Translations under genes and position numbers: made by a program
Part shown: piece by piece, positions 30,839-38,304 of the stretch
Layout of the letters: every line of letters starts with the position of its first letter
Numbering within the stretch: the stretch's first letter is position 1
Notes under the pieces: model-generated
The model's database searches: none
What the model was told of the DNA's origin: nothing
Seen by the model: only the letters and a program-made list of their open reading frames with translations
Assembly (NCBI GenBank): GCA_964559945.1
Contig: CAZLJY010000001.1
Location: forward strand, 24,081 to 88,080
Direction of reading: 5' to 3'
Length of the DNA: 64,000 nucleotides
Source: an uncultured Gammaproteobacteria bacterium
GTDB taxonomy: Bacteria; Pseudomonadota; Gammaproteobacteria; Xanthomonadales; SZUA-38

Positions 30839-30872
30839 CCAAGTGCCAGGTTGGATTGGACCTGGCACTTGG
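30839..30872. repeat. 13-bp-stem inverted repeat between glpK and the upstream HAMP gene
   Basis: ccaagtgccaggt (30839-30851) pairs with acctggcacttgg (30860-30872) around an 8-nt loop. No T tract follows on either strand. Confidence 0.5.
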
Positions 30873-32815: not shown

Positions 32816-33073
32816 CTAGGCCGCAGGCTTCCGCTCCAATATTGCCACCATGTACTCGCTTACAATTTTGGCTATCTTGTATGCCAACAATGGCGGCACT
32901 GCATTTCCTACCTGATTGTGACGCTTTGACGGCTCGTGGTGCCGCTTGCCGCTCACCAGAAGGTCATGAAAAGTTGAGGAAAGAGTGCCTGGTATCGCTT
33001 CAGTATTTTCTAATGGCTCGGAATGGGTATCGCCAGTTGTCAAATTTGTCACCTTGACGGATTTTTCTAGCAT
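32816..33073 (-). pseudogene. C-terminal remnant of a DNA (cytosine-5) methyltransferase
   Basis: The 85-aa ORF ends with the C5-MTase motif X context QVGNAVPPLLAYKIAKIV. No N-terminal catalytic motifs (PCQ, ENV) lie upstream, because the AbiEii gene ends 63 nt away. Confidence 0.5.
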
Positions 33074-33136
33074 TTTTGTTTGAGCAGCCGTAAACCAAAG
33101 GCCTAGCAGTCAATTAGCTTCCAAGATCGACGCCTA

Positions 33137-34003
33137 TTACCAAGGTAGTTGCTCGTAAAATGTTTTTGCTGTGTCATACACGTCCTCGAATTCAGGCAAT
33201 TCACCTTCTATTTCGTTTTGAAGGGTGTGGTATTCAGCCCTTGATCTTTGGCGAATCTCTGGGTCCTGTAAGGATTCAGAGTTTGCTTCGATTCCTCGCG
33301 ATGCTGCCTTTTTCATCAAGCTGGTTTTGATTTTTTTTCGTTCCAACTTGGTTGTTTCTGGTAGTTTTTTAATGAGAAGAAATAGATCGTAGACGTCTTG
33401 GCGTCGTTGCCTGTTTCTCGCTTTTTGTTGTAAGACTGCCCGGTATTTTTCTGCAAACAGGTCAGCTAATGAATAGACCCTGATTGTTTCTCCTTCGGTA
33501 ATAGCAAAATTTTCTGTATTCAGCATGAGTTCGTTCATGCTGAAATCTATGTCGAGCGTTGTAGGGCTTTTACCATCAAGTAGCCGTTTATGTTTCGGCT
33601 CATATTTATAAGCGTAGCCTATTTTCATTTTTATCGATGGGAATTTTGCATTCGGGTTTTTTGATGGTTGTACTTTACAACTTTGTACTCTGCATTCGAG
33701 GTCATAGCCCAAATTCTCTGCGACTATTGCCATGCTTTGATTTAACTTTCTTTGGATCTCATCTTTATCATTTTGAGCAAGAGATTGGTTTGTCGAGAAA
33801 TCTATGTCGGTTGTGTGCCGATGGGTTCTGTATTTTATCGCGAGGAGTACTCCCCCTTTCATTACCATTGAAGATTGTAGGTCGGCGTCATTGGAGATTC
33901 CCGACAGAGCAATATGAACAGCTTCCCTAAATTCTCTTTGCCCTTTTGATGGGGATTCGGTTATCCAATCGATTATCCCGCCCTCATTGAAAAAACCCGA
34001 CAT
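33137..34003 (-). CDS. abiEii: AbiEii/AbiGii-family nucleotidyltransferase toxin (type IV TA, DUF1814)
   Basis: The NTase motif reads MKGGVLLAIKYRTHRHTTDIDF (GG-x14-DxD). The C-terminal motif reads EKYRAVLQQKARNRQRRQDVYDL. The protein is 288 aa, and its gene starts 12 nt downstream of the partner gene. Confidence 0.75.
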   Translation of the reverse strand: MSGFFNEGGIIDWITESPSKGQREFREAVHIALSGISNDADLQSSMVMKGGVLLAIKYRTHRHTTDIDFSTNQSLAQNDKDEIQRKLNQSMAIVAENLGYDLECRVQSCKVQPSKNPNAKFPSIKMKIGYAYKYEPKHKRLLDGKSPTTLDIDFSMNELMLNTENFAITEGETIRVYSLADLFAEKYRAVLQQKARNRQRRQDVYDLFLLIKKLPETTKLERKKIKTSLMKKAASRGIEANSESLQDPEIRQRSRAEYHTLQNEIEGELPEFEDVYDTAKTFYEQLPW

Positions 34004-34015
34004 CGATAGATTTCC

Positions 34016-34933
34016 CTATCCCAAATTTCCAACGTTGATCGAGAGTTTCCACTTGTCTGAGAACTCTGGTAGGTATTCGCCACTTGGATCTAGTTTTCTA
34101 GACCCACCGCGCTGAGCGTATGAAACCCAGTCATGGAAGCAAGGGCTATCCAAGCCAAGCAGCTCTTCCAGTAAGTAACCTGCCCTAACTTTATCTATTT
34201 GACTGCCGTGACTAGTTACTTCGTCAGTAATCAATCTTTGGTACTTTTCAGCGTATTCTGAGAAAACTTCGAGAACATGAGCCATACCTCCACATAGGTC
34301 TGGGGCCTTAAGCATATCTAGGAAAGTTCTTCCAACAGTTGATACTCGAAGAGTCATCTTCTGCACATTCCTGTATGCCCCGAGATGAATGCTGTTTTGC
34401 CTGTGTACCACTGTCTTCCCGATTTTTTCCATTTTTATTTTTGCCAATCGTGGCAGGCCATTACTCAAGTAGATATCAAGATCTTCTCCTAGGTCCTTTT
34501 TCATTCGCTCTAGTGCGAATTCTTTCCATAGGTTCTTGCCGGGGGAGGAAATGAATAATTTACCAGGAATACGATTTGTTAGACCGTGGTAATCCATAGC
34601 GCTTAGGTGAGATACGTAGCAAAATGGATCTACTGAGCATGCGATTTCGCTGGGCTGAGCGTCCTTTCTCCCGAGGATACTGAATACATATTTTGTTGCT
34701 AATCCCCTGTAATGGTTAAGAATGCCTTCATCCAGCATTGAGTTTTGGATCTTTGATAGCTCTCGACTGCTTGCGAATTCTTTTGTAATGGACGCAATTG
34801 GTTCTCGTCCAATCGACTTTTTTCGATACAGTCGATGCAGAGCTAGTGCAAGTTGGTAGTTCGTAATAACAGGTTGATTCAACTCCGTTATCTTTTTGGC
34901 AACTGCTTTTTTGAGTTTCATCACGATACTCAT
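34016..34933 (-). CDS. abiEi: AbiEi-family antitoxin / transcriptional autoregulator (type IV TA)
   Basis: The gene lies immediately upstream of abiEii. The block CYVSHLSAMDYHGLTNRIPGKLFISSP is typical of AbiEi. The start is ambiguous: the ATG at 34933 has an AGGA 8 nt upstream, and the alternatives are the ATG at 34921, the ATG at 34960 and the TTG at 34972. Confidence 0.7.
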   Translation of the reverse strand: MSIVMKLKKAVAKKITELNQPVITNYQLALALHRLYRKKSIGREPIASITKEFASSRELSKIQNSMLDEGILNHYRGLATKYVFSILGRKDAQPSEIACSVDPFCYVSHLSAMDYHGLTNRIPGKLFISSPGKNLWKEFALERMKKDLGEDLDIYLSNGLPRLAKIKMEKIGKTVVHRQNSIHLGAYRNVQKMTLRVSTVGRTFLDMLKAPDLCGGMAHVLEVFSEYAEKYQRLITDEVTSHGSQIDKVRAGYLLEELLGLDSPCFHDWVSYAQRGGSRKLDPSGEYLPEFSDKWKLSINVGNLG

Positions 34934-34968
34934 GCTATACGTCCTTAGGACGTATAGCATGAGTATCG
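34924..34968. promoter_or_regulatory. 45-bp near-perfect palindrome (22-bp arms, core CGTCCTTAGGACG) overlapping the abiEi translation start region
   Basis: cgatactcatgctatacgtcct (34924-34945), then t, then aggacgtatagcatgagtatcg (34947-34968). Every arm position pairs. Confidence 0.8.
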
Positions 34969-35009
34969 ACAAATATCAAAAATGTCAGAGCGAATTTGGG
35001 CTAGATCTA

Positions 35010-35038
35010 CTTATATCCGGCTATATTTTTCTATACAA
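35010..35038 (-). promoter_or_regulatory. putative sigma70-type promoter of abiEi-abiEii
   Basis: On the minus strand, TTGTAT (35038-35033) and TATAAG (35015-35010) are separated by a 17-nt spacer. The promoter lies between the two palindromes. Confidence 0.45.
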
Positions 35039-35049
35039 AGGCGTTGTAT

Positions 35050-35088
35050 TTGGCTATCCTTGCGTCCTTAGGACGCAAGGATAGCCAA
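35050..35088. promoter_or_regulatory. 39-bp palindrome (19-bp arms) with the same CGTCCTTAGGACG core, just upstream of the putative -35
   Basis: ttggctatccttgcgtcct (35050-35068), then t, then aggacgcaaggatagccaa (35070-35088). Confidence 0.8.
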
Positions 35089-35104
35089 TTCTATAATTTT
35101 CATT

Positions 35105-35169
35105 TTGTAGATTGAATAGACAATCCGTCTATCGGTACTGCCAACTGAGCCTCGCTGGTAGAATCAGAG
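35105..35169 (-). other. degenerate tRNA-Lys-like relic plus a copy of the tRNA 5'-flank
   Basis: ccaactgagc (35141-35150) equals 38286-38295 in the tRNA D-arm region. cctcgctgg (35150-35158) equals 38335-38343 in the tRNA upstream flank. ttgtagattgaa resembles the T-arm gtgtaggattcgaa, and actgc is also shared. All blocks occur in the same order and orientation. Confidence 0.45.
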
Positions 35170-35235
35170 TGTAATCCCTCCGGAAATTAATCGTCGCTCG
35201 AAGTAGAGTTTTCCATTGACAGGAGATTCTACGAA

Positions 35236-35502
35236 ATGAAGAAAGGACGATTTAAGGAAAGCCTGATATTTCAGGTGCTCAAAGAAGCCGAAGCCGGCGT
35301 CCCGGTGCCAGAGCTCTGCCGCACCCATGGCATGAGCACCGCCAGCTTTTATAAGTGGCGCGCCAAATACGGCGGAATGGACGTTTCCAGCATGAAGCGG
35401 ATGAAGGAGCTCGAGGAAGAAAACGCTCGGCTGAAAAAGATGTATGCCGAGGAAAAGCTCAAAGCTCAGATCGTAAGGGAAGCTCTTGAAAAAAAGTGGT
35501 GA
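35236..35502 (+). CDS. IS3-family transposase OrfA (HTH)
   Basis: [49 protein letters not shown] is followed by a leucine-zipper-like tail ([19 protein letters not shown]). Confidence 0.9.
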
Positions 35503-35528
35503 CGCCATCTCGACGCAAAGAGATGGCG
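35490..35528 (+). promoter_or_regulatory. programmed -1 ribosomal frameshift signal (slippery heptamer plus stem-loop)
   Basis: A AAA AAG lies in the orfA zero frame at 35490-35496. After a 6-nt spacer there is a 9-bp stem (cgccatctc at 35503-35511 pairing with gagatggcg at 35520-35528). Confidence 0.8.
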
Positions 35529-36323
35529 CAAAAAGCCGTGAATGACAGAGCGGTGACTATCCGATTGACCTGTCTGGCCTTTGGTATTTCTGAGACGTGC
35601 TATCGCTATCAGGCAAAGCTCAGCGATGACAATGCACTGATTGCCGATTGGTTGTTGCGAATCACGACGGCAAACCGCCGTTGGGGATTTGGCTTGTGTT
35701 TTTGCTTCCTGAGAAACGTGAAAGGTTTTGGTTTTAATCACAAGCGCGTCTATCGCATTTATCGTGAGCTGGAACTGAACCTTCGGATCAAGCCGCGTCG
35801 CCGGATCAAACGGAATAAACCTGATTCATTGGACGTTCCTCGTCAGATCAACCAGACCTGGTCCATCGATTTTATGCACGATCGTTTGGCTGATGGTCGA
35901 GCATTTAGAACGTTCAACGTGCTGGACGACTACAACCGAGAAGGCCTGGGCATTGAAGTTGATCTGAGTCTGCCAGGAGCACGCATCACAATGGCGCTGG
36001 ATCAGATCATCGAATGGCGAGGAGAACCTAGAGTCATCCGATCAGACAATGGCAGTGAAATGCTCAGCGCTGAATACCAGACGTGGGCCGAAAACCGAGG
36101 CATCAAACTACTGTTCATCCAGCCCGGAAAGCCCACTCAAAATGCTTATGTGGAGCGATATAGCCGAACGGTTCGACACGAATGGTTGGATGAGCATCTG
36201 TTCGAATCCATCGATCATGCGCAGCAAACGGCGACGCAGTGGTTGTGGCGTTGCAATAACGAACGGCCCAATACGGCCATTGGAGGAATAACTCCGATCC
36301 AAAAGCTTGCGTTAGCAGCTTAA
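35496..36323 (+). CDS. IS3-family transposase OrfB (DDE/RNase-H-like catalytic domain), expressed as an OrfAB fusion by -1 frameshift
   Basis: The catalytic region contains [14 protein letters not shown] and [14 protein letters not shown]. The -1 frame relative to orfA is continuous from the slippery site. Confidence 0.9.
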
Positions 36324-36362
36324 TAGCTACTTCCAGCAGCGGTTAAAAATGGGGGGATTACA

Positions 36363-36853
36363 GACCCTCATGTGCAAATGAGTCTCAGACTTCAACAGGC
36401 GTTTGGGCTCAGGCGCGAAGAAGCCATCAAGTTTATTCCGACCCTGGCGGACAAGGGCACAGAGGTCTATCTGAAGCCCACTTGGACCAAAGGTAGCAAA
36501 GAGCGATTAATCCCTATTCGTACGACCCAGCAAAAAGAACTGCTGAGTGAAGCCAAGCGTCTGGCCGGAAAAGGCTCGTTGATTCCGTCCCACCGTAAAT
36601 ACATCCACCAACTTCGAATCTATGAGCGGCGACCGCAAACGCTGGCCTGTCCAAGATGCATGGGCTGAGGCATGCCTATGCGCAGAAACGCTACTTCGAA
36701 CTCACTGGTTGGGAGTGCCCTGCAAATGGTGGACCCAAGAAGTCCCAAATGGCTGAAAACCTTCGTTACATAGATACGCTAGCGCGGCAAGAGATCAGTC
36801 AGGAGTTGGGCCATACGCGACTACCGATTACCGACGTCTATCTGGGCTCTTGA
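36363..36853 (+). pseudogene. tyrosine recombinase (Integrase_1-like) remnant, 5'-truncated by the IS and frameshifted
   Basis: The frame is open from the IS junction (DPHVQMSLRLQQAFGLRREEAIKF...). A 1-nt frame break near 36625-36632 separates ...IHQLRIYE from ...NAGLSKMHGLRHAYAQKRY. The C-terminus LGHTRLPITDVYLG carries the catalytic Tyr context. Confidence 0.7.
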
Positions 36854-37236
36854 TGATTATCGCAGCGGCCGGGCAAGGCGAACCAGACAGTAAAGCTGAG
36901 CGACTTGAAACCATTGGCGTCCAGCAGGTCGCTGAACTCTTGCGGTGCTGTCCAGAAACTGTCAAACGCGCAGCGCGAAAAGGTGACCTCCCCGGTCGCC
37001 GAGTTGGCCGCTCGTGGGTCTTTGTTCGCGCAGACGTCATCAACTTCGTGCGGGGGTATACTAATCCCGAGCGGTCGCCGCACCTACCCAATAGGAGACT
37101 GCATTCATGCAAATCTACCAACGTGGAAAAAGCGGCATCTGGTGGGTTCGGTTCACAACGCCGAACCACCAAAGAGTACGCGTCAGCTCTGGGACTGCCG
37201 ACAAAAAAGCGGCCCAAGAATTCGCCGACAGACTAA
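36850..37236 (+). CDS. excisionase-family helix-turn-helix protein (HTH_17-like); ends uncertain
   Basis: The segment IGVQQVAELLRCCPETVKRAARKGDLPGRRVGRSWVFVRADVINFV matches the excisionase/MerR-like HTH pattern. As read, the ORF overlaps the integrase gene by 130 nt. Confidence 0.55.
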   Translation: MMIIAAAGQGEPDSKAERLETIGVQQVAELLRCCPETVKRAARKGDLPGRRVGRSWVFVRADVINFVRGYTNPERSPHLPNRRLHSCKSTNVEKAASGGFGSQRRTTKEYASALGLPTKKRPKNSPTD

Positions 37237-38213
37237 AAGCGGATTCATGGCGTGTTAGCAAGCTCGGGGAAAGTCCCCGAAGATCATGGCAGGAAGCTGT
37301 GGTGCGGTTTTTAAAGGAAACCTCCGACAAACGGACTCACTACCAGGACATCGCAAAGTTGAAATGGCTTGATCCTCATTTGGGACACCTGCAGCTCGAT
37401 GAAATAAGACCGGACGTCATTCGTTCGGTGCGAGAGCTTATTTTGTCTGGCAAAGGACCCAAGGGCGGCTCAAGTCACGCAAACGCTAATCGATATCTCG
37501 CGGTAATCCGAGCGATTCTTCGAAAATCGGCAACCGAGTGGGAGTGGTTGGAGCGCGTACCAGCGATCAAGCTGTCCTATGAGCGTGGTGGTAACCGCCA
37601 AGATTTCCGTTGGCTTACTCGACATCAGGCGAATAGTCTGCTCGATCGGTTACGCGAGCATCCGCACATTGCCGATATGATGAGGTTTACACTCTCTACA
37701 GGCTTGCGAGAACGTAATGTCACTCAGCTTGAATGGTCCCGTGTGGATTTGAGTCGTCGAGTCGCTTGGGTTGCCGCCAGTGAGTCCAAGTCAAAACGCG
37801 CGATGTCTGTACCTTTGAATGACGATGCGTTGACGGTACTGCGGCAATGGCGTTTCAAACACACGGAGCGTGTTTTTTGCTGGAAGGGTCGTCCTGTGAA
37901 AAGGGCCAATACGAAAGCATGGCGAGATGCACTGGAGTCCGAGGGTCCAAAACCTCGTGCCGGAAAGCATCCCGAGAACTTCCGTTGGCACGATCTGCGT
38001 CATACCTGGGCGACCTGGCATGTGATGTCCGGAACCCCTCTGGAGGTGCTACAAAAGCTTGGCGGTTGGGCCAGTTTTGACATGGTTTTGAGGTACGCAC
38101 ATCTTGCCCCAAGCCATGTAGCAGCCTATGCAGCTTACGTATCTGGCACAAATCTGGCTCAAATGGAAAACGGAACAAACGTCACGCGTATTGAGGCTGC
38201 GCCAACACGCTGA
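37107..38213 (+). CDS. int: site-specific tyrosine integrase (phage/P4-like)
   Basis: A strong SD (AGGAGA) lies 9 nt upstream of the ATG. The N-terminus MQIYQRGKSGIWWVRF is typical. Catalytic blocks are present (LSTGLRERNVTQLEW, HDLRHTWATWHVMSG, LGGWASFDMVLRYAHL). The gene ends 15 nt from the tRNA 3' end. Confidence 0.9.
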   Translation: MQIYQRGKSGIWWVRFTTPNHQRVRVSSGTADKKAAQEFADRLKADSWRVSKLGESPRRSWQEAVVRFLKETSDKRTHYQDIAKLKWLDPHLGHLQLDEIRPDVIRSVRELILSGKGPKGGSSHANANRYLAVIRAILRKSATEWEWLERVPAIKLSYERGGNRQDFRWLTRHQANSLLDRLREHPHIADMMRFTLSTGLRERNVTQLEWSRVDLSRRVAWVAASESKSKRAMSVPLNDDALTVLRQWRFKHTERVFCWKGRPVKRANTKAWRDALESEGPKPRAGKHPENFRWHDLRHTWATWHVMSGTPLEVLQKLGGWASFDMVLRYAHLAPSHVAAYAAYVSGTNLAQMENGTNVTRIEAAPTR

Positions 38214-38228
38214 AATATCGAGGAAAAA

Positions 38229-38304
38229 TGGTGGGCCGTGTAGGATTCGAACCTACGACCAATGGATTAAAAGTCCACTGCTCTACCAACTGAGCTAACG
38301 GCCC
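38229..38304 (-). tRNA. tRNA-Lys: tRNA-Lys (anticodon UUU)
   Basis: The reverse complement is GGGCCGTTAGCTCAGTTGGTAGAGCAGTGGACTTTTAATCCATTGGTCGTAGGTTCGAATCCTACACGGCCCACCA. It has a 7-bp acceptor stem, a GCTC/GAGC D stem, the anticodon loop CTTTTAA, a GTAGG/CCTAC T stem and an encoded CCA. Confidence 0.95.

Follow-up and report, generated by a model that had tools for sequence, protein, structure and literature searches.

Perfect palindromes with an invariant core and co-varying arms as likely AbiEi operators upstream of abiE

Why does the control region of a single toxin-antitoxin operon carry two long palindromes without a mismatch, and what keeps them so? The question arises at the abiE locus of an uncultured gammaproteobacterium, in a 64 kb stretch of contig CAZLJY010000001.1 (assembly GCA_964559945.1) that is referred to here as the window. 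AbiE is a widespread anti-phage toxin-antitoxin system, and work on how it is regulated covers just two species. We think it likely that the palindromes are operators of the antitoxin AbiEi, that they lie on two back-to-back promoters and that their arms are kept perfect by pairing at the DNA level.

The proximal palindrome (34924-34968, no strand assigned) is a perfect 45-bp repeat, with two 22-bp arms around a single centre base at 34946. The distal one (35050-35088, likewise strandless) is a perfect 39-bp repeat with two 19-bp arms around 35069. The central 13 bp, CGTCCTTAGGACG, are common to both, as the initial annotation of this DNA had already described along with the positions and arm lengths. 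Within them lies the core TCCTNAGGA, at 34942-34950 in the proximal copy, where the wider consensus YGTCCTNAGGACR occupies 34940-34952, and at 35065-35073 in the distal copy, or 35063-35075 with the shared flanks. These two are the longest palindromes in the window; the next best has arms of 13 nt, and the longest arms in each of 20 shuffles of the window sequence were 8-13 nt. The core occurs at only these two places, even with two mismatches allowed. Single-stranded, the two sites fold with energies of -23.2 and -21.7 kcal/mol into hairpins whose loop is T-N-A.

The palindromes lie upstream of a recognisable AbiE module, both genes of which are on the minus strand. The product of abiEi (34016-34921, 301 amino acids), the antitoxin and repressor, matches Pfam AbiEi_1 (PF09407) at E=6.9e-8, with 33.3 bits against a cut-off of 22.2, and has the N-terminal winged helix and C-terminal domain of an AbiEi antitoxin. 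Sequence searches of the PDB with the single sequence and with a profile found no AbiEi; only a fold search with the AlphaFold2 (AF2) model succeeded, with Streptococcus agalactiae AbiEi (6y8q) as its best structural match. Directly downstream, 12 nt past the abiEi stop codon, begins abiEii (33137-34003, 288 amino acids), which encodes the DUF1814 nucleotidyltransferase toxin and matches PF08843 at E=8.7e-32 over profile positions 7-237 of 238. The same gene pair is seen in relatives. The abiEi start is ATG 34921, Met18 of the long open reading frame (ORF), which is invariant in 26 aligned sequences, while the part upstream is unconserved. ATG 34933, taken as the start by the initial annotation and by the automatic gene call P0001 (305 amino acids), is not the conserved one. 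The proximal palindrome therefore stops 2 nt upstream of the start codon and leaves it outside, contrary to the initial proposal that the palindrome buries the start codons. The distal palindrome is 128 nt from the same start.

Are these palindromes peculiar to the window? We collected 80 genomic loci with AbiEi relatives (43-56% identity) from cyanobacteria, gamma-, beta- and alphaproteobacteria, Verrucomicrobiota, Desulfobacterota, Nitrospirae and Omnitrophota, which with the window make 81 loci and 428 kb, and counted perfect odd-centred palindromes whose arms measured 10 nt or more. CCTNAGG forms the centre of 137 of the 140 found, and all 137 sit 13-292 nt upstream of the abiEi start. They are present in 79 of the 81 loci (two palindromes in 54, one in 23, three in 2), and one of the two loci that lack them has no upstream DNA. 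At the remaining 47 CCTNAGG sites of the loci the arms reach only 3-7 nt. Proximal homologues are found in 78 relatives, with centres 13-77 nt before the start codon, and distal ones in 56, at 80-152 bp from the proximal copy (one at 202 bp). The core TCCTNAGGA (±1 to ±4) is completely invariant in 118 non-redundant palindromes, and likewise in the alignment of 64 diverse palindromes used below; it is flanked by G/C at ±5 in 87-98% and by Y/R at ±6. Arms are 18-26 nt long in 125 of the 137, with a median of 21, and their edges are sharp, complementarity dropping to 31% past the first mismatch. The suggestion that the palindromes belong to the control of abiE is borne out, and they are very likely AbiEi operators: they stand upstream of the gene in nearly every relative and nowhere else in the loci, and long-armed copies in metagenomes lie beside AbiEi genes.

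Those copies came from looking up the 15-mer core ACGTCCTNAGGACGT in metagenomes and viral contigs. Of 120 metagenome matches, 29 were long-armed (15 nt or more per arm). An AbiEi homologue (28-56% identity) lies next to 20 of the 29 and next to none of the 91 short-armed matches. Most of the nine long-armed exceptions sit near the left margin of the sequence fetched, so that the abiEi gene may simply fall outside it, or have a degenerate AbiEi-like ORF. In the viral contigs there were 27 matches, with arms of 7-14 nt and none near an AbiEi gene, and no AbiEi relative was found in viral contigs. As short-armed cores are without AbiEi neighbours, long perfect arms are specific to the AbiEi context and not an automatic consequence of the core.

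Two other identities were considered for the palindromes and rejected. Dispersed repeats of the repetitive extragenic palindrome or miniature inverted-repeat transposable element kind (REP/MITE-like), or insertion sequence (IS) ends, do not fit elements with two copies in the window and all 137 copies in 428 kb upstream of abiEi. Nor are the palindromes part of the neighbouring IS3 element, which starts at 35170, outside both. CCTNAGG is also what we take to be a Bsu36I-type restriction or methylation specificity; the data lend no support to such a role.

Several loci depart from the common layout. Seven Pseudanabaena loci (L005, L012, L014, L018, L021, L022 and L024) carry a single palindrome at about -57 with arms of 32-34 nt that include a consensus TATAAT, an architecture distinct from the two-palindrome design; L022 also has an overlapping even-centred palindrome with 23-nt arms just upstream. 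Only two copies are imperfect, L003 -138 and L026 -107, each with one mismatch in the core of the distal copy. Their outer arms remain perfect, and they may be decaying or inactivated distal operators. As to possible looping or cooperation between the two palindromes, their centre-to-centre spacing shows only weak helical phasing, near integral turns (n=67; Rayleigh p=0.007 for a 10.5-bp period), and the 123 bp in the window is off-phase. Among the retrieved stretches, a viral contig of 1.8 kb (L095) has the 15-mer core four times, and L099 and L115 have it twice, 21 bp apart, in all three with short arms and no AbiEi gene; these may be an unrelated repeat element with the same core. A DNA adenine methyltransferase-like ORF (551-1498 in L213) lies about 330 nt beyond a long-armed palindrome pair at the left end of its stretch, which stops short of the abiEi side.

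The outer arms behave very differently from the core. They differ completely between loci, and also between the two copies of one locus, where 4.35 of 12 positions are alike compared with 3.87 by chance. As this is barely above chance, the outer arms can be rejected as a common recognition sequence. They are nevertheless complementary: across 64 diverse palindromes 99.9% of 1,216 arm-pair cells are Watson-Crick, against 60% in shuffles and 32-42% with a slid partner, and nearly every non-core position shows all four pair types. Both sides have changed in 484 of these cells and one side only in none, and there is no G·U-type pair. In 134 non-redundant palindromes all 2,871 arm pairs are Watson-Crick, with no G·T, and comparison of related loci gave 59 compensated arm changes and no uncompensated one. 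A symmetric protein neither requires a change in one arm to be mirrored in the other nor co-evolves with two arm sequences, so the arms must 'see' each other, which means pairing. Symmetric protein binding alone cannot yield perfect co-varying arms together with the fast-changing centre described below.

Whether the pairing is of DNA or of RNA depends in part on where transcription starts. In the family logo of the proximal palindromes TATA occupies -10 to -7, in many cases with TG before it, and positions -33 to -28 resemble TTGACA. The logo of the distal palindromes shows TAnnaT at -13 to -8; on the opposite strand, in the inner flank, it has a hexamer similar to TTGAAA, separated from the mirrored -10 by 17 bp. 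In a position weight matrix scan the modal promoter of the proximal palindromes faces towards abiEi, while that of the distal ones faces away (24 of 53, against 13 of 53 at the mirror position). The best -35 scores agree, at 8.44 towards abiEi and 2.14 away for the proximal copy (p=2e-11) and 2.16 towards and 6.65 away for the distal (p=1.8e-6), over a background of 1.12. One relative, L025, is near consensus in both directions, with TTGACA-17-TGC-TATATG towards abiEi and TTTACA-17-TATACT outward.

In the window the predicted abiE promoter (34951-34979, minus strand; TTGATA-17-TGC-TATACG) has its -35 at 34979-34974, a 17-nt spacer, TG at 34959-34958 and its -10 at 34956-34951, and overlaps the upstream arm of the proximal palindrome. 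Transcription would start at about 34946-34943, and the leader would measure about 25 nt. The predicted outward, divergent promoter (35032-35060, plus strand) has -35 TATACA at 35032-35037, a 17-nt spacer and -10 TATCCT at 35055-35060; its match is weak (8/12) and its start would fall at about 35067-35069. The -35/-10 geometry thus places both predicted starts at about the palindrome centres. The candidate promoter first picked out as a good one, TTGTAT-17-TATAAG (35010-35038, minus strand), is present in the sequence but did not hold up: it fails a strict sigma-70 scan, its -10 lacks the final T, and it is not the conserved arrangement, a -10-like hexamer occupying the equivalent position in only 5 of 64 relatives.

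It had also been proposed that the proximal palindrome acts as an RNA hairpin: with a start upstream of it, a 22-bp hairpin in the mRNA would hide the ribosome-binding region and add translational control to repression. A leader transcribed from upstream would indeed fold stably (-45.9 kcal/mol, z = -8.7), its stem ending 2 nt before the AUG, the weak TTGTAT-17-TATAAG lies between the palindromes, and a promoter-like site directed at abiEi is also present at 13-23 of the 53 distal palindromes. However, a transcript begun at the centre would contain a single arm and could form no RNA hairpin. The conserved -35/-10 sets the start there, the mapped 26-nt leader of S. agalactiae fits such a start, and the start codon lies outside the palindrome. 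The distal palindrome is equally perfect, yet its better-supported promoter faces away from abiEi. A structured leader would tolerate G·U pairs, be strand-specific and be fully transcribed, whereas here not one of the 1,216 cells holds a G·U-type pair, arm symmetry is equal on both strands, and stems stop at G·T-type boundaries, which occur at chance frequency, without extending past them. A search of Rfam found no family above threshold, only generic hairpin (miRNA) matches below it. We therefore regard the RNA hairpin as improbable. The lack of wobble pairs, the stems that end at G·T, the symmetry of both strands and the predicted starts at the centres point to pairing at the level of DNA rather than RNA, and the sequence record implies such pairing between the two arms.

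Such pairing need not have a function. If the palindromes are ordinary AbiEi operators whose palindromic core, constrained by the protein, forms a perfect nucleus beside a 1-nt centre, template switching in replication hairpins could copy one arm onto the other while the sequence drifts neutrally. Template switching that turns quasi-palindromes perfect is an established mutational process: it perfects imperfect repeats, copies changes between arms and can invert the loop base, and in laboratory reporters it accounts for mutational hotspots. To our knowledge no description exists of it keeping a whole family of regulatory sites intact across phyla. It matches the compensated arm changes and the A/T flips of the centre base seen here, and neutral copying would explain arms that are strictly Watson-Crick and co-vary without intermediates, a partnerless centre base that varies freely, often by complement flips, and the imperfection of the S. 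agalactiae operator, which has an N3 spacer and mismatches near its centre. It also predicts that the arms should change at about the neutral rate. In five close pairs, a small and partly non-independent sample, 5 of 153 non-core arm positions differ (3.3%) compared with 150 of 1,465 third-codon positions of abiEi (10.2%; Fisher p=0.003), so that the arms change about three times more slowly. Slow change that is always paired is the behaviour of stems selected for complementarity, and the tight distribution of arm lengths with its sharp edges suggests a selected length. We consider functionless symmetry possible but unlikely.

The centre base changes fastest of all. It differs in 6 of 9 comparisons (67%; Fisher p=8e-5 against third-codon positions), with three complement flips (A/T) and three transitions. 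A fast and flip-prone centre is what is expected of an unpaired loop base under hairpin template switching. The centre also varies between near-identical loci with identical arms (L010/L011, L014/L018/L021/L024, L016/L020, L044/L047 and L066/L079); it is C in one and T in the other of L016/L020 in both palindromes, A, T, T and C in Pseudanabaena copies with identical 32-nt arms, and G against C between L012 and L237, when L012 is compared with L237-L242. We also considered that the centre base might flip or phase-vary rapidly, and rejected this, as contigs with identical AbiEi have identical palindromes, centre included.

A comparable pattern is known from the origin hairpins of rolling-circle replicons and geminiviruses, where an invariant, non-palindromic loop is nicked by an HUH Rep protein and the stem co-varies. 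The sites described here share the constant centre, a stem that co-varies by lineage and strict pairing at the DNA level. They differ in two ways: no nuclease is encoded, and the invariant centre is a palindrome in its own right, suggesting a symmetric duplex site.

How do these sites compare with the AbiEi operators that have been characterised? AbiEi of S. agalactiae binds TGTTGCTTTTATACCACAAATAT-N3-AAAATTGTAGTGTAAAAGCAACA, with 23-bp arms that have 4 mismatches and overlap the -35 and -10 (PMC3985639). The outer 11 bp, TGTTGCTTTTA, are its perfect and conserved part and the mismatches lie near the centre (PMC3985639, PMC7319586); transcription starts 26 nt before the ATG, as mapped experimentally (PMC3985639). 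In the abiE loci studied here a palindrome of similar size (about 45-49 bp, 20-23 bp per arm) likewise lies directly upstream of abiEi and overlaps the promoter, the predicted leader of about 25 nt is close to the mapped one, and a two-domain AbiEi repressor is followed by an AbiEii toxin gene. The spacer is 1 bp instead of N3, the arms are perfect, where each 23-bp arm in S. agalactiae has 4 mismatches, and the palindromes usually come as a pair, oriented in opposite directions, rather than singly. The invariant part is also differently placed. In S. agalactiae it is the outer TGTTGCTTTTA; here it is the central TCCTNAGGA within YGTCCTNAGGACR, the outer ends are free and unconserved and do not resemble the published consensus, and we found no sequence similarity between the two operators.

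Upstream of M. tuberculosis Rv2827c, two pairs of 23-bp repeats lie within -1 to -131 of the start (PMC7319586). One pair straddles the promoter, and the antitoxin binds all four half-sites, IR1-IR4 (PMC7319586). The loci described here also have two inverted-repeat pairs within about 130 bp upstream of an AbiEi-like gene, but the pairs of Prv2827c are in tandem, 4 bp apart, with 13-bp inner gaps, imperfect repeats and graded affinities, whereas these palindromes are 80-150 bp apart, perfect, and set on divergent promoter signals. Inverted repeats of 20-23 bp per arm, upstream of abiEi, overlapping its promoter and within about 130 bp, are the published form of an AbiEi operator and are what is found here. 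Arm length, position and even the presence of two palindromes are thus precedented. With published arms of 23 bp, arms of about 20 bp are not unusual, and the initial remark that these palindromes are far longer than a typical operator falls away. The central invariant core, the flawless co-varying arms, the fast-changing centre base, the 1-bp centre and the divergent promoter signals are new. No description of the core motif in an AbiE context was found in the literature searched. The class is widespread, previously undescribed and a variant of the known AbiEi operator.

The reading that we favour, AbiEi operators on two back-to-back promoters, would work as follows. Each palindrome would be centred on the predicted start of one promoter, with the -35 boxes in the spacer between them. 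The proximal promoter would drive abiEi-abiEii, a type IV toxin-antitoxin and abortive infection system, and the distal one would point away from the operon. AbiEi, probably placing a monomer on each arm like its characterised counterparts, would read the invariant centre TCCTNAGGA (YGTCCTNAGGACR) and cover about 20 bp of each arm, blocking the -10 region and the start site and so repressing both promoters. The outer arms, not being a shared recognition sequence, would be complementary because they pair as DNA in a transient hairpin or cruciform. That pairing might be selected, or mismatches might be erased by hairpin-templated copying, or both. Possible roles for the outward promoter are shielding the mobile cassette from read-in, producing a small RNA or providing a second site for AbiEi titration.

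Several points weigh against this reading. A strict sigma-70 scan finds no canonical promoter in 34800-35250, so that the promoter assignment rests on family-wide position statistics; the promoter matches in the window are weak, and -10 TATACG is without its final T. No conserved protein-coding gene or small ORF lies downstream of the outward promoter, and the ORFs upstream are heterogeneous or spurious. The canonical AbiEi recognition helix, as predicted from the winged-helix model (residues 52-64, about 34730-34768, minus strand), is among the least conserved parts of AbiEi, although the DNA core TCCTNAGGA is invariant; conservation is better at the N-terminal helix (K5, A6) and in the 35-51 segment (K35, K47). 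Protein binding alone does not account for the perfect arms, and the cruciform or hairpin that would do so is putative. The evolutionary rates come from few and partly non-independent pairs. AbiEi binding and the transcript starts we infer from sequence.

The palindromes also sit at the edge of what seems to be a mobile unit. When related loci from different contexts are compared, their homology breaks off exactly at the stop codon of abiEii, and in several pairs also 6-36 nt outside the outermost palindrome, limits which define the unit as the palindrome or palindromes, abiEi and abiEii. Could the palindromes therefore be recombination or boundary sites of an abiE cassette, or targets of insertion sequences, rather than operators? 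Besides these homology limits, transposase genes adjoin the distal palindrome in the window, L025, L037 and L068, and the module lies in a tRNA-Lys/integrase island. However, both palindromes are on one side of the cassette, with none at its 3' end, the cassette has no recombinase, homology in other pairs continues 126-2,355 nt past the palindrome, and the promoter signals are precisely placed relative to the centres. We consider boundary sites very unlikely. The transposase genes, at 4 of 56 two-palindrome loci, are unrelated (IS3-like orfA in L025 and L037, IS256-like in L068); their presence could be chance in regions rich in mobile DNA or an insertion preference near the palindrome or outward promoter.

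A position at the edge of the module, together with very stable stems, would also suit bidirectional intrinsic terminators or insulators against read-through into it, and a T-rich stretch does follow the distal palindrome on the plus strand. An intrinsic terminator has a GC-rich stem followed by a T-run. That form is absent here: a scan of 34800-35250 found no terminator-like site and no adequate T-run, the family logo has no T-run next to the arms, and an invariant 9-bp centre would be unexpected. A role in termination seems to us remote, the least probable of the alternatives. Elsewhere in the window, the third-longest palindrome (30839-30872; 13-nt arms and an 8-nt loop, CCAAGTGCCAGGT...ACCTGGCACTTGG) lies between two minus-strand ORFs and is probably a terminator.

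The IS3-family element (35170-36362, plus strand; orfA 35236-35502, orfB 35496-36323) has the ends TGTAATCCC... and ...GGGATTACA and is separated from the distal palindrome by 81 bp; its 3-bp flanks, GAG and GAC, are not identical. The element is outside the operator system but breaks up whatever the predicted outward promoter originally read into. To its right are a 5'-truncated Integrase_1 (PF12835) fragment (36372-36668), an intact tyrosine integrase (37107-38213) and tRNA-Lys(ttt) (38229-38304), on the strand opposite to the adjacent integrase, which puts the abiE module inside a tRNA-associated integrative island. A search of the plasmid database with window positions 33000-35100 gave no DNA match.

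Our picture of this locus corrects the gene start and the promoter model of the abiE operon in the window, and defines the likely operator of a large clade of AbiEi proteins with members in cyanobacteria, proteobacteria, Verrucomicrobiota, Desulfobacterota and further phyla. The operator, whose design is seen in about 80 species, has an invariant 9-bp dyad core and is usually present in two copies on divergent promoter signals. Its thousands of perfectly complementary base pairs in co-varying arms are an exceptionally clean evolutionary signature of arm pairing at the DNA level, and make hairpin or cruciform formation in vivo, or hairpin-templated correction, testable at a natural regulatory site. 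A bolder reading, which we hold only tentatively and consider rather unlikely, is that the operators work as extruded hairpins or cruciforms, with TCCTNAGGA at the tip or dyad and the arms kept flawless by arm-to-arm copying, and that both AbiEi binding and the promoters respond to supercoiling or single-strandedness. Such changes might come, for example, from phage infection or divergent transcription. If true, this would be a self-correcting, structure-dependent class of operator, and would link DNA topology to the activation of toxin-antitoxin defence.

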